Assembly (NCBI RefSeq): GCF_025526975.1
Contig: NW_026515675.1
Coordinates: forward strand, 62,001-126,000
Length of the DNA: 64,000 bases
DNA from: Fimicolochytrium jonesii
Taxonomy: Eukaryota
Direction of reading: 5' to 3'
How positions within the stretch are numbered: the first letter of the stretch is position 1; every line of letters begins with the position of its first letter. The notes below the pieces were generated by a model. That model searched no databases and was not told where the DNA came from. It saw only the letters and a program-made list of their open reading frames with translations. This document shows, piece by piece, positions 704 to 53,500 of the stretch. The translations under genes were made by a program, and so were the position numbers.

Positions 704-2160
704 TGGACTAGCCCTATCCAGGCAAATGTGCCATATATGACTTCTGTGTCGCCGGCACCCCATGCGCCTCCTCAGCGCGCTATGGCCTACTCCGTCCCGT
801 ACGCTTATAAAGCCCCGGAACGGCATCCTTACTTTCAACCTCGTTCTCAAAGCCCTCCTTTCAATGAAATTCCTCATGAAAGTGCATCTGTGAGATCTGT
901 TACTCCCGTAACACCCCCTACGGCCGGCAAATCAGCTTCCAAAGTCTTCATCATCACTACCCTTAGTAAACTCGGCTCTACAACGGCGATCCCAATGTTA
1001 CCAAGCTTCAAGGGTTCCTTGATCACATCGACGTAATTATGAAGTACGAGATGATTTCGCCTTCCGAATGCGTAGACTTCGTCGTCAACGCGCTCACTGG
1101 ACCAGCTCTCCAGTGGTGGAAAAGCCTTCCTGAAAACGAGCGCTTCTCCATAATTTCCTGGCACAATATTCAAGACGTCTATGGACTGCCCCCGCGACTC
1201 GGATTACGCTCCGCAATGTTGAGGCGCTTCATTCCCCGGAATCATCTGCCGCAAGTTCTTCACAGACTGCGCGCTCTGAAGCCCAAGTCAATTAACCATC
1301 AAGGTTTAACCGAATTTGTCGCCCAGTTCAACCTTTTGGCTGGATAACTCCCCAGGCTCCCGGAATACGTGCTCTGTGCCGATTTCCTTCAAGCCCTTCC
1401 TAAGAATCTTAGTACCCTGATCACTGCTCAGGCTCAGTACGATGATAGACTTAGTCCTTCTCAAGAAGCCGCGATTCGTATAGCCGCCGAGCACAACGAG
1501 AAGACCCCGAGTATGCCTCAGTCGGGGGCATCCGCTGCCCACGTTACTTCCACTCTACCTCAGAAGAAGAAGAACAAATCCAAGACTGGCGGCTCCAGAG
1601 GCACCCCCTCTACCCAATCCTCATCTTCTGACGCAACCAAGAAGCCTCCCCAATGCAAATACTGCAATAGGGACGGCCACAAGTCGGAAAACTGCTTTAC
1701 TTACAAAGCTGTCAAGGATATCATGGACAAGAACGCGAAAAACAAGGCACCCGCTGCAGCCTCCATGGCTTATGCCATGCATGTTCAAGTTCAACCAGCC
1801 AACCACGACGTCTGCCTCTTCAAGGCGAACGTGGATTCCGGTTGTACGGATCATATGACCGCCTATATCAAGGATCTAGATCCATCTTCTATTCAAGGCT
1901 ACCAACGCCTTATTGGACTCGCGGATTCGACTACCATTACCTCTCAAAAGAAGGGTACCGTACTTATCCAACCTACGTCCGGCGGCGAAGTTCTCGCTCT
2001 TTGCGACGTTCTATTGGTTCCCAGTCTTGCCCAGCCGCTTATATCTGTTGCTAAATGCATTGATAACGGCGTTACCGTCTCCTTTCACCCCACCGACGTC
2101 GTTACGTTCAACACCGACCGACATTTACTCGCGATGGGAATGCGCGAAGGCAACGCGTAC
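704..2160 (+). pseudogene. Ty1/Copia gag-protease region, interrupted by in-frame TAA stops
   Basis: Zinc knuckle CKYCNRDGHKSENC; Copia protease motif DSGCTDHMT; L.DVLLVPSL...LISV motif; ORFs 680-1036, 1039-1347 and 1369 onward. Confidence 0.85.
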
Positions 2161-2173
2161 TACCACCTCTCCG

Positions 2174-2221
2174 GGGCTCATAACCCTGAGGCCCCAAGAT
2201 CGAAACTTGGTGGTGCTACCA
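2174..2221 (+). tRNA. 3' fragment of initiator tRNA-Met(CAT) including CCA (reverse-transcribed copy, not a gene)
   Basis: GGGCTCATAACCC anticodon arm; T-arm CCAAGATCGAAACTTGG with the eukaryotic initiator ATCG loop; acceptor TGGTGCTA+CCA; no 5' half present. Confidence 0.85.
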
Positions 2222-2739
2222 TGTCAAGGGAATCGTCCCGATCGCTCAGAACGCCCCGGAGAGGTGGTACAGTCACAGAAAGAAGAGAAGAATGTTTTTG
2301 GGGAAGGTAGGAATGGAACCCACGCCACCTGGGTGAGAGCCAGGTGCCTTAACCACTAAGCCAAAATGTGTCGGGCCGATTCCCTTGACATGGTAGCACC
2401 ACAAGTCCTTCTCGGGACCATACATATACTGCGATACCAACGACCCGGTCCTAGGTACCCCACAGCGGACCAGAGACCCGGGCTGGTACTCCAACTAAAA
2501 TAGGACCGATCCACTGGTCCATGATACCGATACACTGGTACATATATCCGAGAGGCTGGTACACTCAAGGGGAGGTGTAACGGGAACACACACAATTTGG
2601 CTTAGTGGTTAAGACACCTGGCTCTCACCCAGGTGGCGTGGGTTTGATTCCTACCTTCCCCAAAAACATTTTTCTCTTCTTTCTGTGACTGTACCACCTC
2701 TCCGGGGCGTTCCGAGCGATTGGGACGATTCCCTTGACA
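2222..2739 (+). mobile_element. Non-autonomous miniature LTR element (TRIM) with tRNA-derived LTR and a rearranged (inverted) left LTR
   Basis: 3' LTR 2576-2739 (TG...CA); PBS TGGTAGCACCAC 2391-2402; PPT AAGGGGAGG 2567-2575; ~185-bp noncoding interior; 2222-2371 is the reverse complement of the LTR. Confidence 0.85.
2598..2655 (+). ncRNA. tRNA-Glu(CTC)-like segment inside LTR (A box, anticodon arm, B box); second copy inverted at ~2306-2363
   Basis: A box TGGCTTAGTGG; stem-loop CCTGG-CT CTC AC-CCAGG; B box GGTTTGATTCC (GGTTCCATTCC in the other copy); no acceptor stem. Confidence 0.75.
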
Positions 2740-3350
2740 TATTTCAACTGCCGTCAGCTTCGTCGCACGTCAAGTCTCAGCTCCAACCCAAGCCGACTGG
2801 AATGATGTACTTTGCATCATGCGCTACCTTAAAGGTACCCGCACCTTCAAGCTTACCTACAAGTCCGGTCATTCAGATCAAGCTGGACTTCGCGTCTATA
2901 CAGACGCATCCTACGCAGACGATGTCAACGACCGCAAGTCTACCGCGGGCAACGCCAGCTTCTTCAACGGCCAGCTTATCTACTGGAAAAGCACCAAGCA
3001 GAAGTGCGTAGCTCTCAGCTCCACAGAAGCTGAGTATATTGCCGCATCCCTCAGTTACAACAAGGTCATCTGGCTCCGCTCAATCATCGCGGAGGTCTTC
3101 GGCGACGAATACGGCAACATCAAGAACCCTACGCCACTCCACATCGGCATTCAGAGCGCCCGCGAGATTCTCAACTCCACGGCTATTACTCAACGCTCCA
3201 AAGACATCGACATACGCTACCACAAGCTACGTGACGGCGTGGCAAAGAAAGACGGCGTACTCCTCGACACCGCGACGCAGGAACAGCTGGCTGTATACTT
3301 CACAAAGCCCTTTCCTCCCAAGACACATACAAAATTTATTCAAGCAATTC
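2740..3350 (+). pseudogene. Ty1/Copia RT C-terminus and RNase H
   Basis: TAVSFVARQ...IMRYLKGT, YTDASYA..DRKST, WKSTKQKCVALSSTEAEY, DIDIRYH, FTKP motifs. Confidence 0.92.
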
Positions 3351-3771
3351 AAGGAGGACGTGTCGATAGCAATAGACAGCCGGCGACGACTACGTCCGAA
3401 TGAGACATACGGAACACCCATACCGGGACGGCTTCTGGGCACTATATACAACTTCAGCACCTTACCCCGCCACCGTGATAGCCGCCGCTGCCCCGGCACC
3501 GGGGGCTCCACCGGCTCCGGCTCCGCCTCCACCAGGTGGACCCCCTGGACCACCTCCCCCGCCTCCTCCGTCACGGTCTCCATCCTCACTCAAAGACGAA
3601 TCATCCATGTGCTTTCGCAAGTACTGGAGTCGCTTCATCATCTTGTCTCCCTCCCGTCTCTTGGCCGCATCACTGCGGCGCTTCGTCTCTTTCATCTTTT
3701 CTTTCGATATGCCGCCTTTTGCCTTATATTGCGACCCCGAGACTGCCTTACATCCAAGGTAGTCTGCCTCC

Positions 3772-3948
3772 TGTAACGTCAGAGGAAACGTAGACGATTC
3801 TGGGCCCTTCTGAGAGGGCTGAGAGCAGTGTATTGTAGTGAAGAAAAAAGCAAGGAGCTCTTGGCAGCGGCCGCTCGACTGACAGCTTTATATATGGGCT
3901 GCCAGTGGGGCTTGCGTGGCTTCAGTGAGGCTTGGCGCCTTATGTAAC
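3772..3948 (-). mobile_element. Short LTR-like repeat; diverged inverted copy at ~7000-7172
   Basis: TGTAACGTCAGAGGAAAC at 3772 is the reverse complement of the 7155-7172 end; shared core GCAGCGGCCGCTCGACTGACAGCTTTATATATGGGCTGCC. Confidence 0.7.
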
Positions 3949-4659
3949 GTATCACCGAGAGCTCGGGTGGCCAGCCCGGGTCTCGGATCCAGTAGAAGTA
4001 AAGAGATATAATATGAAATACAAGTGAAGATGAGATATCCCCAACACCTCCTCCATCAATGCTTCGAACAACCCCTTCTTTTGCTTCGATCGATCCAGCT
4101 TCGCCTTCGTAAACGCCAGGTGCTTCGCAAGGTTCTCATGGTTATCCTTGCAGTACCTCAACGTCGATACCTCCGTTGCCAATCAAAGAGCTTCTCTAAC
4201 TTGGGCTTTCAACATCGAAGAGTCGCTTGCGGACGCTGCGGACGATGCGCGCGTAGAGCGCGTAGTCGGACGTGAGGGTCCCGGAGGAGGTGCAGCTGGA
4301 GGGGCTGCGGGCGCTCCCGTCTTACGGGCCGTTTGCTTCTTCTTGCCGTCGCCACTCTTCTTGCCACTCCCGCCGTTCTTGCCTCCGTTTGCCATTGTCT
4401 CGCGTATCGTGTGGTAGTCTGGGATACGGTAGTTGAGTATGGGGAACGTTGGTCCTACCTCTCTGGGGCAACTGACAGCTGTCTCTTGTTTTATACTCGC
4501 GGCGTTTCCCTCTTCTTTCATTTTACTCTTTCATTTCTTTCATTTTTAGTCATAGCTATTCATCCCCCCGACCGCCCGCTTTTCGCGTACGGCCGCACCA
4601 TTGTACTCATTGTTTAGATTTATCTTTCACTTAGATAGACTCGTGAGTTTGAGTGGGGG

Positions 4660-5000
4660 TGTTGGAGGTATCATCCTCCCGAGTCCCCGGTTAGGGTTCC
4701 CGTAGTTTATTTCCTCACGTGACTCCCCTCCCACTTACGCCACGCTTCCGCGTACGGGACTTCACTCTTTCCTTCCCTTCGGACCTCGCGTCCTCTTTAC
4801 ACTTAAGACTTTTCTATATAAGACAATACATACTTCACAGTACAGCATTGCACACTACATAGAGTTCGCTCAGTCATCTGCTTCCTCTGCCGACTACTGC
4901 TAAGTTCACCGAGAGCTCGGGTGGCCAGCCCGGGTCTCGGATCCAGTAGAAGTAAAGAGATATAATATGAAATACAAGTGAAGATGAGATATCCCCAACA
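4660..5000 (+). mobile_element. Copia-type LTR (341 bp)
   Basis: TGTTGG...CCAACA termini, preceded by PPT GAGTGGGGG; TATATAA inside. Confidence 0.85.
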
Positions 5001-5613
5001 CCTCCTCCATCAATGCTTCGAACAACCCCTTCTTTTGCTTCGATCGATCCAGCTTCGCCTTTGTAAACGCCAGGTGCTTCGCAAGGTTCTCATGGTTATC
5101 CTTGCGGTACCTCAACGTCGATACCTCCGTTGCCAATCAAAGAGCTTCTCTAACTCGGGCTTTCAACATCGAAGAGTCGCTTGCGGACGCTGCGGACGAT
5201 GCGCGCGTAGAGCGTGTAGTCGGACGTGAGGGTCCCGGAGGAGGTGCAGCTGGAGGGGCTGCGGGCGCTCCCGTCTTACGGGCCGTTTGCTTCTTCTTGC
5301 CGTCGCCACTCTTCTTGCCACTCCCGCCGTTCTTGCCTCCGTTTGCCATTGTCTCGCGTATCGTGTGGTAGTCTGGGATACGGTAGTTGAGTATGGGGAA
5401 CGTTGGTCCTACCTCTCTGGGGCAACTGACAGCTGTCTCTTGTTTTATACTCGCGGCGTTTCCCTCTTCTTTCATTTTACTCTTTCATTTCTTTCATTTT
5501 TAGTCATAGCTATTCATCCCCCCGACCGCCCGCTTTTCGCGTACGGCCACACCATTGTACTCATTGTTTAGATTTATCTTTCACTTAGATAGACTCGTGA
5601 GTTTGAGTGGGGG

Positions 5614-5953
5614 TGTTGGAGGTATCATCCTCCCGAGTCCCCGGTTAGGGTTCCCGTAGTTTATTTCCTCACGTGACTCCCCTCCCACTTACGCCACGCT
5701 TCCGCGTACGGGACTTCACTCTTTCCTTCCCTTCGGACCTCGCGTCCTCTTTACACTTAAGACTTTTCTATATAAGACAATACATACTTCACAGTACAGC
5801 ATTGCACACTACATAGAGTTCGCTCAGTCATCTGCTTCCTCTGCCGACTACTGCTAAGTTCACCGAGAGCTCGGGTGGCCAGCCCTGGTCTCGGATCAAG
5901 TAGAAGTAAAGAGATATAATATGAAATACAAGTGAAATGAGATATCCCCGACA
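5614..5953 (+). mobile_element. Second full copy of the same LTR (3'-end fragments also at 3952-4046 and ~6943-6983)
   Basis: TGTTGG...CCGACA, preceded by the same PPT. Confidence 0.85.
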
Positions 5954-5964
5954 AACACTGCCAT

Positions 5965-6500
5965 GCCCCACGGGCTCTGCGTGTTGAACCCAACAACACT
6001 CGAGCATGAGAGTAACCTTCTCATTCAGCTCTTTGAGTTCGGCTTCGCTCATATGCCGTAAAGGATTAAAGACTGGTTTCGTACCAGGCTCCAGCTTGAT
6101 ATGGAAATCATCCTCTCCTCTATTGGACGGCAACTCTGCGTGCTCGACAAACAAACCATCCACGTGCTTCTCTAACGTTGGATATAGAAGGTGATCCAAT
6201 GGCACGCCCAAGTCAACCTTCTGTCCTGTAGCTTCGCACATCTGAACCTCTGGCTCTGGTTCGGCGCGATTGCGCTCATCTGCGGGGACATAAGCTGGTG
6301 ACGCATTCACTGCAGCTTCTATGTCCATAGCGTACGCTATGTAACACTTCCCATACACCTTTTTTCGAAATAAGCGAGTGAACTTCTGATAAGTTACAAC
6401 CCCTGCACTCGGGTCTTCTCGTTCAGGCATCGCCGCCTTGAATCGTTTACACTTCTTTCTGGTGTCAAAGGACCGCAGATCAGCCGCATTACAAGACGAT
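5965..6500 (-). pseudogene. Ty3/Gypsy pol fragment (region leading into RT)
   Basis: ELPSNRGEDDFHIKLEPGTKPVFNPLRHMSEAELKELNEKVTLML..WV resembles the Gypsy pre-RT segment; truncated by the LTR. Confidence 0.75.
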
Positions 6501-6571
6501 TGGGATTCCCATTTCCCTGTCTGGTCTGGCAATCAGGGTATGTTCAACTTCATCCGCACGGAATCCCACGG

Positions 6572-6826
6572 CAGCTATGGGTAGTAACAAGGCTGGCCAC
6601 GGCAATGGCGGTGGCAATGGCGGTGGCAATGGCGATGGCAATGGTGGCAACGGCGGTGAGAGGGTGTGGAAGAACCAGTGAAGAAGACCTCTGCAGCTAC
6701 GGGTAGTAACAAGGCTGGCCACGGCTCTAATAGTAGAAGGCTGGTCCAGAAGGCTCTAAGTCCGCGGTGAAGGCTCTAAGTCCGCGGGTAAAGGCTCTAA
6801 GTCCGCTGGTGAAGGCTCCAAGTCCA
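6572..6826 (+). repeat. Low-complexity cluster: 32-bp direct repeat (6572, 6694) flanking GGCAAT/GGCGGT hexamers, then ~4 copies of a 20-21-bp unit GAAGGCTCTAAGTCCGCGG
   Basis: Read directly from sequence. Confidence 0.8.
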
Positions 6827-6999
6827 GCTCCAGAAGGGTAGGAACGGGCCATAGACGCATTACAGTTTTGATTTTCAGTCAAGGACTGCTTGCTAATGGG
6901 ACCTAGGCCCCAGTCCCATAACACGGCGCGATTATATCTGCAATATAATATGAAATACAAGTGAATGTGAGATATCCCCAACAGAATCTGAGGGAGGTA

Positions 7000-7172
7000 C
7001 ATCATCCGCCAAGCCTCCTTGAAGCCACGCAAGCCCCACTGGCAGCCCATATATAAAGCTGTCAGTCGAGCGGCCGCTGCAAATGACTTCCTACTTTTTT
7101 CTTCACCTGAATACACTGTTTTCAGCCCTCTCGGAAGACCCCATTATCGTCCAAGTTTCCTCTGACGTTACA
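7000..7172 (+). mobile_element. Short LTR-like repeat (partner of 3772-3948)
   Basis: Purine tract GAGGGAGG before it, TATATAAAG inside, ends ...GACGTTACA. Confidence 0.65.
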
Positions 7173-9196
7173 GTTCGGGAACGCTTCCTGCCCGAGACCG
7201 TAACCCGCGGAACTCCTGATAATATTCTTGGCTCAAGGCGACAGAAATGGCTGCTTGCATTTAGAAATGAGCTCTCAGCTTGTGAGGTTGGTCGGATTTA
7301 CGGGGCTCGACGTTCTTCCGCTTGATCCCATCACCGTTTTACTTTACGCCGGGGCTCGACCTAACTGTACAACAATGATAATCCCAGTGCTTTCCAAGGC
7401 TCTTTCATCGCTGGTTTCGTGCTGGTCTATAGACCGCCCACATTTTTGGTGAAGCTTGATGTCGAAAGACATTCTTGGCTGAGCACTGACAAGCGCAAAG
7501 GAGTTGAATCAAAACTAGTTGGACTTTGCATTGAAAGCTGTCATCCCGCATGATGCCAGCGTGACAGCAACCACAGTCTCACACAACATTCGGCGTGATG
7601 GCCCTCAGTCGTGGAATGGACACTTTGTGGGAACCGTGCGAGATCACAAACAGGGAGCCGCTATGGCTACACAGGCACATTGGGCAGGCATTTCTCATTC
7701 TGTTCATCAGCGGACTCTCAGGTTGTAACTAGCTTCAAGGGTAGCGGTAAGTCCGCAGGGTGGGCCTATTCCCACTCCTTTTCTGATGCGGGCACAACCC
7801 ATATTCCAGCCACCAATCACAAAATGATTGGCTCTGTACGAGTAGGACTGTATTTTTATAACCATATCTATTTGCATCACAAACCCACTGTAATCCCAAA
7901 GGATGGCTGGTGGATGGTGATGATGGCATGGTTTTCCACACCAACGATTGGTCACATTTGGAGTGTAGTCTCTGAGGAACTAGATGATGGTCTGATCTAC
8001 GATTCTTGATTTTCTCCGATGACGTAGTCATCCAAACACAGTTTCGATTACATGACTATCGTAAGGTTCATCTAGCACCAGCGGGTTGCTTACATTTTCA
8101 ACTGAATCATCCCCCCCCCCCCCCCAGACATGATGTCCTGGGAAAGACCCTGCCAAAAACGCGTAGGAAGGTTCTATTACCTCGCGTTTGGCGAACCTGG
8201 ATGAATAGCGGCAAGCAAAGAGCGCATATGAACGGCCGTCATGGCATGGCACAGGTCCGGCGACGGGTAGGCTTAAATCACACGCCGATTTATGTGTCCC
8301 AAACGTATCCAGAAACCGGTCCGGCGAACGAGCAAAGCAAGGTGCCGCAAAGGCTTGCGTGCACAGCGAGAGAAGCGACTGCTCCAGGCCAGTGAGAGTT
8401 GAAGGCGGTATCCTTGCGTATGTGCTGTCAATAAATGCACGTTACCCCGGAGCACTCGCTCGCTGTGAGATCTCTAACAAACCTAGGCGATGCCTTAATT
8501 GGATCTAATGACGGGCAGCGCCTCATATGGGTCCCAACAGGCAACGTATGGGAAATTACGTATGGGCCTAGCTAGACGACTGGTGGCACCGAGTCCCAGA
8601 GTTTTCGGGACTGACACCGTTTCGCCTTATGTACTGTCGAAAACAAGGGACGCGGATGTTGCATAAGCAAAGCCAGCCGAAACTCCGATCTGTGGACTCC
8701 AATATTGGAGAGAGTACGAGAATCGACAGCGCGTTACGCGCTCGTTTCCGGGCCCAAATGACACCCCGACGGGCCCTCTATGGTCCATAAGTTCAAATTG
8801 CTCCGAGGGGATTATACAACACAGTTACCATTCGCCAAGCAACCTTAAACCCTTCTGATGATCGGACAGCGGCCGAGAACTGTCAACTGGGAAGGACCCG
8901 AGTCAGTTAGTGAGAGTTGCGTATTTCCCGTGCCGTGGCCCGCCGAGAGCCCTCCTGGCCCGGCTCTGCCACAGTCTCACATAGAACGCTCAACATCCAG
9001 GCGACGAGTATAAAACAGCAGCCTCGACTGTCGTCCCCTTCAATTCTCGCTTTCGCACTTCCTCCGAATCCGTCAATAACTGCACCACTACGCTCCGCTT
9101 CCTCGAGACTTCAGGTCAATCTTGCACCGCTGCACGCTCCACGCTGTTCATCAACGCATATTATCAAGTCGTCAAACCACTTCGAAACGATTCATC

Positions 9197-30349: not shown

Positions 30350-31967
30350 CTACCACCCGTAAGGAAGCTTTCCGCCGTTGGTCAACTTCGCCTGTTCTTC
30401 GAGTTGATAGCATTGGTAGAGCCCGCGATTGATATATTCCTTCGTCTGACCAGGGGCGCAAACGATCGATGCGCATTGCTTCAACGTAGGAGACCCGGTT
30501 CGGTCAAAGTACTCGCGGGCCGAGGGGCACGAATATTCCTTGCCAGAGTAGGAGTAGTCTTTGCCGGAGTAGGAGTTCTCTTTCTGACCGTAGTTCTCTT
30601 TCTGACCGTAGTTTTCTTTCTGACCGTAGTTTTCTTTCTGACCGTAGGAGCCTTGTTGCTGACCATACTCGCTTTGGTCGCCGTACGAGCTGGCGGCCTT
30701 GTAGGAAGACCCAGAGCCGTACGAGCTTTGTTGCCAAAAGTCGGGCTTCCAGCAGTAACCCTGGTGGCGGTCAACAGCAGAGATACACTTATCGAAGGAG
30801 GTGACTACTTCGTCAATGCACCGGCCATGCGCGGTGGAAGCGGGACCCTTGCAATAGTGTTCCTTGACCCAATCGAAGGTCTAGTGAAGAAAAGGGAAAT
30901 GAATGAATGAGTGAATGCAAGTGAAGGTAGGGAAACTCGGGAGATGCGAGCCTTACTTGACGACATTCATGATAGGAGTCATCCCTGTATTTTGCATCGC
31001 ATTTGGGTCCGTCGTACGAAGAAGGCTTGTTGTAGGATTCCTCAGGCTTGTACTCGCCCTTGTTCTTGTAGGATTCCTCAGGCTTGTACTCGCCCTTGTT
31101 CTTGTAGGATTCCTCAGGCTTGTTCTCGCCCTTGTTCTTGTAGGATTCCTCAGGCTTGTACTCGCCCTTGTTCTTGTAGGATTCCTCAGGCTTGTACTCG
31201 CCCTTGTAATCCTCCTTTTTATAGTCGGATTGATAAGATTGGCCAGCGGGTGGCTGGTAGCTGGTGGCTGCGAAGTATTTTGGTGTACCATGGCCGTACT
31301 TCGAGTCATCCTACAAAGATGCAACGGCAGCAAAAGGATGAGCGATAAGGGAATGAGTTTCCAGCCCATCAAGCTTGACGTACCTTGTTCCAACCATAGC
31401 CCTTGCTGGTTTCGTAGTTGTTTTGCTTGGAACCATAGTCGTTCTGCTTGTATCCGTAGTCCTTCTTCCATTCGTCCTTCTTCCAGTCGTCCTTCTTCCA
31501 GTCGTCCTTCTTCCAGTTTCCATAGTCGTTTCCACCATATTTCTTTCCATAATCGTCTCCGCCATAGTTCTTGTAACCATAGTCGTTCTTCTGTGGAATA
31601 CGGGAATGTGTGAGCGCGACGCGATTGAGAATACGAGGGTCGGATCCAGTCGAACCGAAAACAGGGCCCATACCTTGTAGTCTTTGGCGAGACAAGCCTT
31701 GTTGGCGTAAGTATCCCACCCATACGCAACACCGTTGTTGTCGTACCAAGTTTTGTCTTGCTATTTGTTTGGGGGAATCAAGTTGTGGAAGGGACCGAGT
31801 CAGGCACAGGATTCGGTCAAAGAGTCACATAGATCACGGGGGCAACTTACGTAGGACTGGTACTTGCAGGGAGAATAGCGGGGACCGTCGTAGTTGTTGG
31901 TGTTGTAGTAGGGAGCCGCCTGCGTCGCAGAGACGAGGAGAGCAGTGGCAAGAAGCACTTTGACCAT
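30350..31967 (-). CDS. Secreted Lys/Tyr/Gly-rich repetitive protein with Cys-containing domains, multi-exon
   Basis: Signal MVKVLLATALLVSATQA; repeats WKKDD, YKNKGEYKPEES, YGQKEN; ends GKLPYGW*; TATAAAAA at ~32160-32166. Confidence 0.8.
30575..30647 (-). repeat. 18-bp coding tandem repeat x4 (YGQKEN)
   Basis: GTTTTCTTTCTGACCGTA units. Confidence 0.9.
31030..31207 (-). repeat. 36-bp coding tandem repeat x5 (YKNKGEYKPEES)
   Basis: TTGTAGGATTCCTCAGGCTTGTACTCGCCCTTGTTC units. Confidence 0.95.
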
Positions 31968-47572: not shown

Positions 47573-50500
47573 CTACGTAAAATCAAGTCCATCATTCTCC
47601 GCCTTGTCCTGTTCTTCGTGCTCCTTCCGTTGGCGCTCGTCTGACCCCGAAGAGGGGTATTCTGACGCGAGGGCGCGGTCCGTATTCGATGGAGCGCTCT
47701 CAGCTGCTTCTGGTGGCTGGCCAGATACCTGATGCGAATCATTTGACACAAGTGTGATCGCTGCTATTGAGGACGATGTGTCCCCAACAGGCATGCCAGG
47801 CTTGGCCACAGATTCGTCGGGCTGTAAGAGATCGTTGTTGCTGACAATCCAGCCACCTTCGCCTCTCATGGTTGGTCCATCTCCATCAGCGTCGCCGATA
47901 TCCAGTGGCGCGTCTGGGATGCCCAAATCTGGTAACGCCTCGGCATCCACACCACCTGACTCGATTAAGCCGCTAGCTAACGCTCCGGCGTCATCTCCAG
48001 CGTCTGTGTTGATGGTCGAAAAGGTCTTTCCGATGCCATGTTCGGGTATCAGTGCAATGGATTCTTGTGCTTGCAAAGCCTCCATGCTGCCGGTAAGGGA
48101 TGTGCGACTCGCGCGGGCACTTAGGGCTTCCCCTTCCGTCATGATCCCGAACGTCATTCCGGTGCGGATGAGTAGCGCGTGCAGTACGAGCCTGATGTCA
48201 GGAGTCACGTCTTGGCCGAGAAGATTGACCACCTCGCCGTAGAAATGTGGCATCTGGAGACGGAACTGATCGTTATCGAAATCAATGAGAGCGTTGAGTA
48301 TCGTCACGACTACCGGCCGCCATGCATTGACATTCCGCCGCTTGGATTCGGGATCCAATGAGTTGTAATGTGTAAGAATGTCGTGACATAATCTGAACAG
48401 GCAATACAACATGTAAGCCTCTTTCCATTGCCCTGCGCAGATTTCTACACCAAGACAGCAAATCACTTACGGCACTAATCTCTTCGCGATCTCCGGCCTC
48501 ATGCCTGTCCTTTCATCGCTTGGATCTAGGTACATCTTGATCAGCACGCCCACATAAGTCGACACGCTGCTCGTCTCTTGTTTCAGCAAATTCGGTAGCT
48601 GTTTCATGAAACCCATGCGATATAACGCCATCCGTAGTTCCATGTCGCCGTTGAAAGCGCGGGCGAAGCGGTAACTTCGCTCGAGACAGTCTAGTAACGT
48701 GAAGAGGTTTTTGGAGTTCAAGCTGCGATATACGGCGTCGTCAGACCCTGACGCAAGCACTTCCTGCAGAGTTTGAATGACGAGAAGATGAAGCACGCAT
48801 TTGACGATGATTTGCTGAAACTCCTTCTTCTGAGGTCTTGGGCGTTTCGGACGGGTCTCAATGGACAGACCCTTCTCTTCTCCAAGTGGCATAATAGTTG
48901 GTGGTTGAATGGCTGAAGCTGGCGCTGGGATATCTCCACTCTCATTGGGGTCGAAGAACAGAGCATTCGGTGTTGTCACATCGAAAAGATGGACGAACAT
49001 GGTGGAAATCTTCTCCCATATATCGCCATCCAATTTGGACACGTTGCCCTCGATAAATTGCTGAAGACAGGTACTTCCGATTCTCGCAAGCGTCTCGTTC
49101 TCTTGCGTCATGCAGACTGTCAGGAGCTCCAAGACTCCATCGATCTGAAAGCTCAGTGTATCGAAATAATGACCAAACAAGTCGATGAACTGCCGTAGTG
49201 CTTGGATGAGCGTGGTAGAGAGCCAGACAGACATGTCTTCCTTGTTGGCGAACTTCGTGTGCTCCTGCCTGGATAGGCGCAAGTCGTCGAATATAGGGAA
49301 GAGAACCCCTTTGGAAATGACCTCCCAAAAGTCGCGTGAAAATGATGCACCGTATTGTTTCAAAGTATCGAAAAGGTAATTCAAAGCCCTGCATTGCGCA
49401 TTTTGAATCAACCGTCCTGCTCCTTCGTAGCTCTCAACTCATAGCGGAGAACGTACCTGGTTCGAACCTCCAAGTCGCAAGTCATGATAACCTCGTATAG
49501 CCCAAACAAGATCGGGAACCAAAATCTGAAGCTGGGGTCGTCTTCCGGGCCTAGCCCACCAGCTGCCGTGGCAGCAGGTACAGCCAACTTCGCTTGGCCA
49601 GTCGCCACAGCAGCAGGTGTAGCAGCAGATGTCGGCGTGGAAGCCAAGAGTCCCTGATGTACCGACTCTGTCAGGTTCTCGTTCGACCGCATCACATTCA
49701 TAGTGCTAGCAGCGGTGATGAGAAGCTTCGACCCTTGTTGCGTCTTGGAGAGCTCGTAGATGCGAGGGATGGATTGCTTGAGAATCTCGACGGATTGGAG
49801 GCTGGTTCGCGCGAATTTGCGGTTCTTGCATAGTTCCACCAGGCAGGATACAGCATCTGGGAAAGTTTGATTGACGACGACACTTTCAAAATTTGTCTTG
49901 AAGATTCCCTTTACGATGTCGAAGGCGAGCAGAACGATGGGTTCTGAGTTGATGGTAGCGTCAGCAGTCAAGCCATTGTGATGATCGTGCGCGAAACGTA
50001 TAAGATCTTACCGTGGGTCTCCCTGGCGGCCCGAATGAACGCGCCAAACATAGCTTTCCAACCACTCTTGATGCTTTTGCTTTTCGCCTGGATCATTTGT
50101 TGCAAACACGCCAACACCATGTCCTTGATCTTCACATCGCTGTTATTCCCTAGTACATGCTCAAAAGGTCGTAGGAAGTCCTTTTGGAACTTGAAATTGG
50201 GTAGCTCCTCCAATTCCAAGAATTTCATGGCCAGCTGGCGCAATTTGTCCAAGGCAAAATATCCCACGTTGCTGTTGGGATGGCATCCGACCTGATTGAA
50301 GTGATCTCCAAGGATGGCCCAGATGTTGGACCACTCGACACGAATACGCTTCATGTTATAGTAGGAGATTTCGACGAGCCGCTGAAGGCAGTACATACGT
50401 GGATGCTCGCGATCGGAAGAGAACGTAATTTCGTCCCATGAGACCTCGCATAAGGCTTTCACGAACGCTACAATGGCGGAACCGGAGAGCTTCACGCTTC

Positions 50501-53500
50501 CCGTGAAGATTCGATCAACTACGACAGTCATGCTCTGCGAACTAGCTTCGGCCGCAGCTTCCTGGAGGTATCCAGTACGCGTGAGTCCATGCGACGACTC
50601 GCGTCGTTGAAGTCTGTCGGTCGACGCGCGTGGTCTTGACCCGTCTTGTTCGTTCTCTCCTGCGACTTGGAGCTTTTCCAATTGACTCACACAAAGCACC
50701 ACGTCCTTCCAGTTTTCCCCTAAATGGTTTCCTTCGGTGAACGCGATGTCCAGTAAGCACTTGGTTGCCTCCAGATTCTTCGCTTTCATCTCCTGCATGT
50801 TGCCCAGCATGGTGAATTTGCTCAGTGTGGAGATGAATGCTTTCTTTTCCAGGTCCATATCGAACAGACAGGCGATGCGCGTAGCGTGCTTGAACCCCTC
50901 CAATGCGACGAGAATGGTCTCGACATCCTCGCTCTCCTGTAATGGTCCACTGATGCCGGTGAGAATGCTCATCCAGATGATTTGGAACATTCCCTTTACG
51001 TGCTCATAGTGTCTTGCAACGTAGAATTCGCCCGAGGCCGTGCTTTCCTTATTCGACGCAATGAGAGTGCTGCGCTTGCTCTTCCCTTTCAGCATGGTAT
51101 TGAACATAGCTTCCGTTTTCAAAGCCATTGTTTCGCTCGCCAACGCGAATTGCGCGACTTCACGCTTGGCACCTGCGGCGCCAGCACCGGAGGCCGAGTT
51201 TGGTCCGCCAGGACTAACAAGACCGGCGGCCGATTGTTCATCCTTCATCACAATTTCGTTCTTGTTGATCTCATCGTAGATGGCTTCAAGAACTTCCGGT
51301 GGGATGTCTTGACCATTGTCAATGGCGCGGTTGTTCTTGATGAACTCCGGCTTCGTCATGCGCTTTTTTACTTGCGCATTGTGTTGATCGGTGTTGAGCA
51401 TAATCACGGAGTAAGCTAATACATAGGCTGTGTCAGCACTACTAAAACTTTGAGGGTTGCCTTTAACGTAACGCTCCGCGTATTTCAACATGAATCGATC
51501 GATCTTCTGGGCTTCTCCAGGCAATCGGAACGATTGTAGAAAGAGTCGCAAGGCGTCGGTGAATGTGAGGCCTGTGAAATCCATCTCATCAACAAAAGCA
51601 TGCATGATCGCGATATTCTCCTCTTCGCCTTCGCCCAAGAATTCTCCAATCATCGACTTGTTGAGTCCGTCGTTCGTGAGCAAGAATCGAGCGATATCGC
51701 GCGGCGTTCGAGAAGCGATGCAACCAGAATTCAGAAGGTACTGCATGCCCTTTTTGGGTTTGAAGTTGAATTGCTTGATGCCTTCACTCAACACCTGTTT
51801 CCGCTGTTTGAGGTTCTCGAACGCGGTCGGATCGTCGGCGGTTCGCTTCACCGCTGAAGCCTTCTTCCCATCCTCCTCGGTTAGCAGACCCAGTTTCCCT
51901 GATGTGTCCCCTTCCTCGCTTTTACGAGCCTTCTCCTCGTCTAGCGCCTGGGCCGCCACAGGACTTCTTGTACTGCACCAGGCAATCAGAGGTCGCAGCA
52001 CGCCTCTGACCATCAGCTCCAGCCCGCGCTTCTTCAACTCCATGTAATCGCCGGTAGAAGAATAGAGCTCGCGCACTTGGTCTTTCGTGAAACTGGTCAT
52101 ATTCGCGGTGGTGATTGCGGGTGGACCTCCAAGGCCGATTTTTTGCGTCTGCTGCGCTGCTTGCGCGGTGGGTGTGGCACTCGGCTCGTAGTGTTGCGTC
52201 ATCACTTTCGCCAATGCGTTTATCAGACGTTCCCAAATGTTTTCTCGGGCTCCTGCTTCGACATCGCAATCATAGTTGAGATAGATCTCGACGAGGATCC
52301 TCCCCCCATCTCCTTGTGGATCGGAAAGAATACGTTCCAGCGATTTCAGCAACGACATGCGCTGGTGAAAGGTTATAGACGACCGTGCTTCCACAATCGG
52401 GATCACGATCTCGGTGAATATGACGGAAAGCTCTTTCTACTCCCAGTTTACGATCAGCAAAAATAAGACTGGCGTCAGTGGGCAGAGCCGGTGGCTTACC
52501 TTCAATACAGTCCGCAATCCCGTTAAAACCTTCCCGAAAATCTCCAGCGAGATGTCGAACACTTGTGGAACCACGCTCACAGCATTGCGACTCAAACTCA
52601 AACATAAATACTGCTTCACAGCGTGGACGAAAAAGACCGCGCTAGGATCGCCTTTCGTTGCAGTGCCGGAGGAAAATAGAACTGGCGCAGGAATAGTAAA
52701 TATGTACATATGAGTGGAGAGGATTGTGAAGACGAGGTGGAGCGACAGGAGCTTGGACCGCATCGCATGAGATTTGAGATCAGTTGCCCTGATGAATGTG
52801 CCAGGTGAGCGGTATTGCAACGAAAGTGAAAAAGTGTCACTTCGAAAATTAGACCTACCCCTCTGGAGCTGGGATTGGCTTCATGCTCAACTTGCACAAA
52901 GCCCTGAAGACAAGATACGCGTCTTTCAAGTATTGGTCAGCCGGCGACCCTTTGACTTGCTTGGACGACTCGTTCAGAATGTCCTGAGATGCCCGAACTG
53001 CCGCGCCACGCGTTAGATCCTTCAAAGCCTGTGTTGCACCAGTCTGGTCACCATCGTAACTCCTGGTCATAAAATATTAATTTCAGCACATGACACCCGC
53101 AGTCATTCGGGAGACCGCCGCAACTCACATGCTATCAATGCTGCGCGAACCCTTCATATGCGGCTCTGACCGTGCTGACCGAGCATCGTCTACGCTTCCC
53201 TCCGTCGCTGGAAGTTTCGGCTCGGATTCTGACGTAGGTGTGCCTTTTCCTTCTCCAGCCATATTGGATATTTTGTTTCCATCCTCCGCAGGGTTTGACT
53301 GCGCGTCTTCAGGCACTGGGGTCCCTGGATTCGCCTCGATCTTGTGAACTTTCGGCACGCGACCAAAAACGGCCTGTACCATCTGAGTCAAAGTCGCTTG
53401 CGCGACAATCTGCGTGTTTGCAGATTTCGAAAGCAAAAAGATGTTGTACGTTGTGCGGACTGCTTTCAAGAGCACTCCGCCGTGGATGGCGGCGTTGGGA

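Follow-up and report, generated by a model that had tools for sequence, protein, structure and literature searches.

Clustered retroelement remnants occupy the left end of the window (the whole 64-kb stretch of DNA that was analysed, to which all positions refer), and among them is the insert analysed here, which interrupts the remnant of a Copia element on the + strand. To its left is a gag-protease remnant (970..2163, + strand) with a Pol_BBD match (E 1e-12) and one in-frame stop at 1345-1347, which belongs to the Copia protease/pre-integrase region and closes on a G-x-x-Y-Y motif just ahead of the pre-integrase domain; to its right are the end of the reverse transcriptase (RT) and the RNase H (2740..3403, + strand), identified by mapping on full-length relatives, and the Pfam search of the window's right flank returned no match of its own. 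Both flanks map onto full-length relatives ordered Pol_BBD, rve, RVT_2 (the protease-integrase-RT-RNase H order, as in Ty1/Copia). Across 14 of the 16 relatives that match both flanks, the other two being out of range and left out of the count, the gap at the insert has a median of 717 aa (range 691-947); the missing Copia pol amounts to about 700 codons, or about 2.1 kb, and comprises the pre-integrase, the integrase, SH3 and the whole RVT_2 domain. An earlier note, made from the letters alone, had held that the insert replaces the Copia integrase and most of the RT, and the gap in the relatives bears this out. No paired Copia LTRs were found in the 64-kb window, where all scores stayed within those of shuffled sequences, and the same comparison of the window sequence placed the homology between Copia and the short LTR element of the insert (the TRIM, described below) within the shuffles as well. 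The lack of such a pair means that the surroundings of the Copia remnant are rearranged, and two or more events may be superimposed at this site.

Several further features were seen in the neighbourhood. The gag part of the left flank (970-1344) matches Retrotrans_gag and Ty3_capsid, not the copia-type gag family of the full-length relatives, and none of 687 candidates proved to be a longer relative of the Copia protease region. At 436-447, a polypurine tract followed by TGT may be where a further LTR begins, for which the window contains no partner. Between 3952 and 5953 a 954-bp unit is repeated in tandem, in about two copies (99% identity); a Gypsy-like RT fragment, judged by eye, lies on the minus strand at 5828-6532, and 176-bp inverted repeats (86%) at 3771-3946 and 6998-7173 form the two ends of this stretch (3771-7173). 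Within the TRIM, 2467-2486 in the internal region is complementary at 18 of 20 positions to the 954-bp repeat (3971-3990, 4925-4944), with a score above 100/100 shuffles. Far to the right, an ORF at 30953-31777 contains a short tandem repeat (31027-31207, period 72 bp).

The right-hand part of the insert is a short LTR element on the + strand. It has a complete TG...CA 3' LTR of 164 nt (2576..2739; A box 2598-2608, B box 2641-2651), a short internal region (2403..2566) bounded by a primer-binding site (PBS, 2391..2402) and a polypurine tract (PPT, 2567..2575), and, ahead of the PBS, a stub of the 5' LTR (2371..2390, LTR +145 to +164) that is the only trace of a direct 5' copy and is identical to the 3' LTR at 18 of its 20 nt. 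The internal region counts 185 nt with PBS and PPT and has no visible protein-coding sign at 2403-2566; an intact element would by arithmetic be 513 nt long, under 1000 bp and non-coding. The PBS is complementary to the last 12 nt of initiator tRNA (nt 65-76), then to 4 more past a 1-nt gap, as the earlier note had proposed for the site at 2391, and its 12 nt end just before G64 of the tRNA. Both copies of the LTR (the 3' LTR and the inverted copy described below) pass the Rfam tRNA gathering threshold of 29 bits, with 32.4 bits for the 3' LTR and 40.5 bits for the inverted copy, and both contain the A box TGGCT...TGG, whilst the B box reads GGTTC in the inverted copy and GGTTT in the 3' LTR. 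Judged by these sequence features, the element is a TRIM of the Helenus type. Its host is a chytrid-like fungus: among named sequences, a host exon (49968-52436, minus strand) is most similar to those of chytrids (52-64% identity), no close relative of it was present in the collection compared, and an exact look-up of a host exon gave no hit. The element is present once in the 64-kb window, and exact-motif searches gave no further copies, neither with an LTR 22-mer and a tRNA 21-mer in metagenome contigs nor with a U5-PBS 24-mer in prokaryote genomes and an LTR A-box 23-mer in viral contigs, all of them collections from which the host is probably absent.

Two further observations concern the element itself. 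Positions 2569-2575 of the PPT can pair 7/7 (one G-U) with the acceptor-like strand that follows the T-stem (2655-2661), which accounts for ARAGORN calling a tRNA at the 3' LTR alone; with such pairing, a tRNA-processing enzyme could cleave the RNA at the 3' LTR only, against which the PPT pairs elsewhere in a longer fold and z is only -1.4. The CpG observed/expected ratio is 0.63 in the insert (2161-2739) vs 1.01-1.16 in flanks, genes and the whole window, which may reflect methylation of the element.

To the left of the stub, and overlapping it by 1 nt, lies an inverted LTR copy (2222..2371, minus strand; LTR +15 to +164, tRNA-like unit at 2307-2363), which is the reverse complement of 2590-2739 at 143 of 150 positions. 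It is joined without spacer, exactly at the primer-U5 boundary, to the 3' end of an initiator tRNA (nt 29-76 including CCA; 2174..2221, + strand), the arrangement of about 48 nt of tRNA and some 150 nt of LTR that the earlier note had described. The fragment is not simply a second TRIM inserted head-to-head, as its 'PBS' runs 48 nt into tRNA and not into an internal region.

The 48-nt fragment is of the eukaryotic initiator type, with a CAU anticodon loop, three G-C pairs in the anticodon stem, a 5-nt variable loop, a perfect 5-bp T-stem, A54/A58/A60, T72-A73 and the CCA end. A motif taken from it (anticodon loop plus T-loop) matched at least 119 loci in viral contigs; these yielded, among the matches listed, at least 90 distinct genes in the register of the fragment, with one match with a longer spacer and those cut by locus ends set aside, and ARAGORN placed a tRNA-Met(CAT) at the motif site in all 20 loci submitted out of the at least 119. 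The chance that the 22 fixed motif bases would arise in 64 kb is about 4e-8. Since the references were picked with a motif derived from the window, the shared motif itself is circular; no such circularity attaches to the pairing of the T-stem, to the register or to the agreement with the element's own PBS. Neither Rfam nor ARAGORN called the half-tRNA, and Rfam gave only a chance match on 2140-2240. Among the matches listed the best identity to a reference is 39/45, and position 47, a C in the fragment, is C in only 2 of 90 references. Four viral loci retrieved as possible parallels (one by an LTR-end-plus-PBS 17-mer, three by a T-loop-to-CCA-TGT pattern) were discarded as chance, having no tRNA or LTR context. 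In two of the viral contigs (L081, 78-822; L024, 35-821), 6-7 initiator tRNA genes of eukaryotic type stand in tandem arrays.

At its inner end the tRNA copy stops 2-3 nt short of G26, which is present in 86 of 90 references among the matches listed and which we take to be dimethylated and a stop for RT. Two earlier obstacles were passed, with A58 and G64 both copied faithfully, so that the fragment bears no misincorporation mark of an RNA template. In other systems, m1A58 is a stop in retroviruses (PMC11251516), position 64 of yeast initiator tRNA bears a ribosyl phosphate (PMC7694415), and plus-strand synthesis of yeast Ty elements ends once 12 nt of the tRNA have been copied (PMC5371799).

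The earlier note had pointed to the CCA, which eukaryotes add after transcription. The CCA is not diagnostic of an RNA template: the PBS lies directly against the LTR and contains the sequence complementary to CCA, so that a DNA-level switch out of the PBS into a tRNA gene would produce an identical junction. A replication or repair strand coming from LTR and PBS would then have run into a host initiator tRNA gene via 9 shared bases, with CCA supplied by the PBS, which agrees with the position of the PBS next to the LTR, its match to the tRNA and the several other microhomology junctions in the insert. However, this requires that one of a few remote 72-bp genes was hit, whereas every round of reverse transcription yields a molecule in which the primer tRNA is covalently joined to the LTR end; moreover, the insert contains no tRNA gene flank, and no initiator tRNA gene was found in the window. 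Because of the remote 72-bp target we rate such a switch as quite improbable.

The left end of the insert is formed by a 17-nt piece in LTR sense (2161..2177, + strand; LTR +117 to +133), the exact reverse complement of 2253-2269, as the earlier note had seen. Because 2692-2708 has the identical sequence, the piece may stem from a fold-back or from a template switch to any LTR copy. The 17-nt piece shares 4-5 nt with the tRNA fragment, and the chance of the 13 nt not shared with it is about 2e-5. The GGGGC microhomology that had been proposed for this join is present, but only four of its five bases are surely tRNA: position 28 is G in the window and A in 30 of the 31 references that have the same partner bases at positions 42 and 43 among the matches listed (G in the remaining one), so the sure part of the tRNA starts at G29 and the sure fold-back overlap is 4 nt. 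The bottom-strand fold-back stem is perfect (z -5.4, 0/200 shuffles), as expected by construction given the repeat. On the Copia side, relatives carry G-x-x-Y-x followed by a hydrophobic residue, and 3-4 bases at 2161-2164 are, by sequence, probably common to Copia and the 17-nt piece. The absence of a target-site duplication (TSD) stated in the earlier note was confirmed for 4-6 nt at the left junction, and it says nothing about the TRIM family, as the left flank is deleted.

One base to the left of the junction, an in-frame Copia stretch (2142..2159, + strand) resembles the D-arm of initiator tRNA (nt 10-28; best 14/18) and ranks third of 127,966 positions under a matrix built from the references among the matches listed. 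The per-position chance is 2.4e-5, or about 5e-4 within 20 positions, values that are uncorrected for a resemblance spotted post hoc. The stretch was rejected as real tRNA because it is in-frame Copia and has none of the conserved A14, G15 and G22; the likeness may be fortuitous; alternatively, pairing of a longer tRNA copy at this place may have determined where the deletion ended.

A different kind of explanation is that the arrangement is a normal family structure, in which a mobile Copia-TRIM chimera would make an RNA whose built-in tRNA end folds onto the PBS and, after a cut behind the CCA, self-primes in the manner of Tf1. Such a fold is provided for by a 32-nt inverted repeat, in which 2210-2241 pairs with 2371-2402 (97% complementary), and Tf1 is described in PMC7175516 as priming itself with the 5' end of its RNA, which is complementary to the PBS. 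The fold-back insert and the short overlaps nevertheless look like one-off repair, there is a single copy in 64 kb, the Copia frame carries a stop and its paired LTRs were not found, and no known cut would free the CCA end; we give this explanation hardly any weight.

In contrast to the left end, the right end is clean. After the terminal CA of the LTR come a T and the Copia frame I-S-T-A-V. As RPD precedes the corresponding position in 114 of 136 relatives, the T at 2740 is likely the third base of the Asp codon of RPD, and an overlap of at most 1 nt indicates an integrase-like clean LTR terminus. The stub, for its part, begins at the 3' edge of the 4-nt GCGA loop of a U5 hairpin (2709-2726; the hairpin is found in both LTR copies).

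Both this clean terminus and the 1-nt overlap at 2371 are also compatible with a history in two steps, in which a normal TRIM with TSD was inserted in the Copia RT region, and a break at a later time took away 2.1 kb of Copia together with the left TSD and the greater part of the 5' LTR and was patched through end joining by a free tRNA-LTR intermediate of the same family. The patch would have been either a minus-strand strong-stop hybrid or trimmed, over-extended plus-strand strong-stop DNA. There is experimental precedent in the accessible parts of the yeast literature: Ty1 cDNA intermediates are captured at breaks and 40 of 56 3' LTR insertions carry extra cDNA-only nucleotides (PMC11372161, PMC7175516), whilst Ty3 particles accumulate dead-end plus-strand strong-stop DNA (PMC5371799). 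A single-stranded plus-strand piece would, in addition, fold back without resection. As in over-extended plus-strand DNA, the tRNA was copied beyond the normal stop, over 48 nt vs the 12 nt of the PBS. An over-extended plus strand should, however, start at LTR +1, whilst the inverted part starts at LTR +15/+16 and not at the first U3 base, which trimming could explain. Two steps also demand that the patch shares its family with the element at the break, and by private changes the inverted copy is not the younger one, although this test has low power. We regard this history as unlikely, but as the strongest competitor.

Comparison of the LTR copies bears on their age. Over the 150 sites shared by the inverted copy and the 3' LTR there are 7 differences, and the stub differs from the inverted copy at 1 of 20 positions and from the 3' LTR at 2 of 20. 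Polarised by the B-box consensus, stem pairing and three-way comparison, 2-3 changes are private to the inverted copy vs 4-5 to the 3' LTR (equal-age test p 0.45-1.0, low power), and CpG transitions make up 3 of the 7 (p 0.03, with one of these CpGs deduced from the B-box consensus). Private changes on both LTR copies together with CpG transitions point to ageing in the genome and argue against a fresh chimera; the 7/150 differences also fit two different source copies or two events.

Whole-genome-amplification chimeras usually take the form of inverted repeats with a deletion, and the insert has that form, so a library or assembly chimera, for example an inverted one from such amplification, has to be weighed. 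It would need three or four separate joins inside 210 bp, one of which would have to reach a distant tRNA gene and hit the exact primer boundary. Moreover, overlaps of 1-12 nt give an assembler too little to join on, and the inverted arms show 7 differences over 150 sites, with changes on either arm; we consider such a chimera very improbable. The insert is real and beyond chance.

The most economical reading, which we hold with good confidence over both of its versions (one event, or the two steps above), is that a tRNA-primed reverse-transcription intermediate was copied through its primer and became fixed in the genome. Between the versions we lean slightly towards the insert being the scar of one botched retrotransposition. 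In this one-event version, Copia RT would have primed TRIM RNA with the whole initiator tRNA, and the resulting tRNA-U5-R minus-strand piece would have failed to jump. A second, full-length minus strand would then have copied the PBS and 20 nt of U5, stalled at the loop of the U5 hairpin and jumped, with a 1-nt overlap, to the free 3' end of the tRNA-U5-R piece, from which it would have copied R, U5 and the tRNA past the usual 12-nt stop to about position 29-27. The integrase would have joined the right (U5) end, which was normal, to the Copia RT region; the left end, having no att site, would have folded back on the GGGC overlap and been extended by 13 nt, before it was end-joined via 3-4 shared bases about 2.1 kb away with deletion of the intervening sequence.

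What favours the single event is, first, that the tRNA in the insert is the one named by the element's own PBS and sits at the exact primer-U5 boundary, and that the shared family of patch and adjoining element needs no coincidence. The clean right end before the Copia frame also speaks for it, as does the 17-nt piece, which resembles yeast fold-back inversions in the accessible text of bioRxiv 10.1101/2024.03.07.583931. The 12 nt of the PBS stop before G64, in agreement with the Ty 12-nt stop and the position-64 modification, the tRNA copy ends just before G26, and the private changes on both LTR copies are compatible with equal age. It is weakened by the best tRNA reference reaching only 39/45, with C47 so rare among the matches listed, by the need for the polymerase to pass positions 64 and 58, both normal stops, and by the lack of a misincorporation mark at A58 and G64. 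The LTR differences fit two source copies or two events as well, the jump at the stub has a 1-nt overlap such as host end joining would also leave, and the window contains no LTR pair for the Copia remnant.

The earlier note had proposed that an uncleaved tRNA-cDNA was copied through and captured at a break. Copying through the primer is retained as the most economical reading and a break fits the left end, but the right end is a clean LTR terminus. Similarly, the layout does match minus-strand strong-stop DNA, yet a trimmed over-extended plus-strand duplex gives the same sequence. This matters for what the end of the inverted part means, because it would be the RNA 5' end only if that part is minus-strand strong-stop DNA. 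The end had been put near LTR position 14 and was found at +15/+16, on an A inside an (AC)4 run, 8 nt before the A box, where it coincides with position 0/+1 of the tRNA-like unit. The spacing from start to A box in yeast tRNA genes is roughly 18-20 nt, and both the (AC)4 run and the closer A box here make a start site at +15 doubtful; that 84% of yeast tRNA transcripts begin with A, according to PMC5095917, is a point in its favour. From the sequence it is conceivable, but not our expectation, that LTR +15/+16 marks the RNA 5' end of the element.

Taken jointly, these features would allow a more specific and rather doubtful picture, in which the inverted copy would be the complete minus-strand strong-stop DNA of a Pol III-driven Helenus whose RNA starts at LTR +15/+16, the first position of the tRNA-like unit, leaving a U3 of 14-15 nt; Copia RT would jump end-to-end and read the whole initiator tRNA past 64 and 58, and pairing of the tRNA copy with 2142-2159 may have set the end of the deletion.

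What resulted is a single dead copy that shows no sign of function; by analogy with yeast and HIV experiments its formation would draw on known processes, with a precedent for each step. It is a rare and unusually complete natural example, not a new mechanism. As a fossil of the primer it shows which tRNA primed the element, and in a form of at least 48 nt, not as a short fragment; it also offers a testable RNA 5' end for a Helenus-type element. Aberrant cDNA ends of the kind seen in yeast and HIV cultures can evidently become fixed in a natural genome together with a kilobase deletion, and such scars, collected across genomes, could map RT stops on native tRNAs and the RNA starts of elements that are intractable in the laboratory. 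Primer-plus-strong-stop DNA has also been proposed as the origin of tRNA SINEs, a proposal that our search of the open-access literature did not recover. No report of a natural genomic fusion of tRNA primer and strong-stop DNA in a TRIM was found in the open-access literature.

Among known systems, the element itself is closest to Helenus (TRIMp3, Kojima 2024, PMC10886601), as described in the available part of that paper: both are short non-coding LTR elements with PBS and PPT, whose LTR contains a tRNA-like A/B-box unit followed by a pyrimidine tract. Some Helenus families, including rust ones, use the 3' end of initiator tRNA as primer, as here, and Helenus is linked to Copia, with which our element is likewise associated (PMC10886601). 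The available text reports fungal Helenus only from rusts (Pucciniales) and three agarics, gives a 5-bp TSD for the fungal families and notes an anticodon-loop intron in rust initiator tRNA genes; it states Pol III transcription as unvalidated, the elements being known from sequence only, and contains no tRNA-primer fusion (PMC10886601). In contrast, our host is chytrid-like and thus outside Pucciniales and Agaricomycetes, and our copy has neither a complete 5' LTR nor a TSD; a name and string search of the supplement of PMC10886601, in the part available, gave no chytrid names and no matching PBS or A-box strings. The finding extends the Helenus type to a chytrid-like host.

Capture of Ty1 cDNA at yeast double-strand breaks was reportedly described by Moore and Haber (1996) and by Teng et al. 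(1996). In the accessible accounts (PMC11372161, PMC7175516), the captured sequences resemble our scar in being LTR-derived RT intermediates with extra cDNA-only nucleotides, end-joined and with no TSD, but they arose at induced laboratory breaks, whilst this scar is natural and aged, and here 48 nt of primer were copied and fused to an otherwise complete element with a clean right end. The left junction has its counterpart in yeast fold-back inversions, which at breaks are templated over 5-34 bp, primed by microhomology and end-joined via 0-5 nt; in the available text these start from a primer overlap of about 10 bp on a chromosomal substrate (bioRxiv 10.1101/2024.03.07.583931), whereas here the overlap is 4-5 nt and the substrate a retrotransposon end. 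The tRNA junction compares with over-extended plus-strand strong-stop DNA of HIV-1, in which synthesis past a modified base or an unremoved primer leaves tRNA at the U5 end, and 2-LTR circle junctions show tRNA/PBS sequence at unprocessed U5 ends in the available portions of PMC11251516 and PMC5618025. Unlike the HIV-1 case in these sources, read-through here extends to the anticodon stem of initiator tRNA, the LTR part starts without its first 14-15 nt, and the product is chromosomal.
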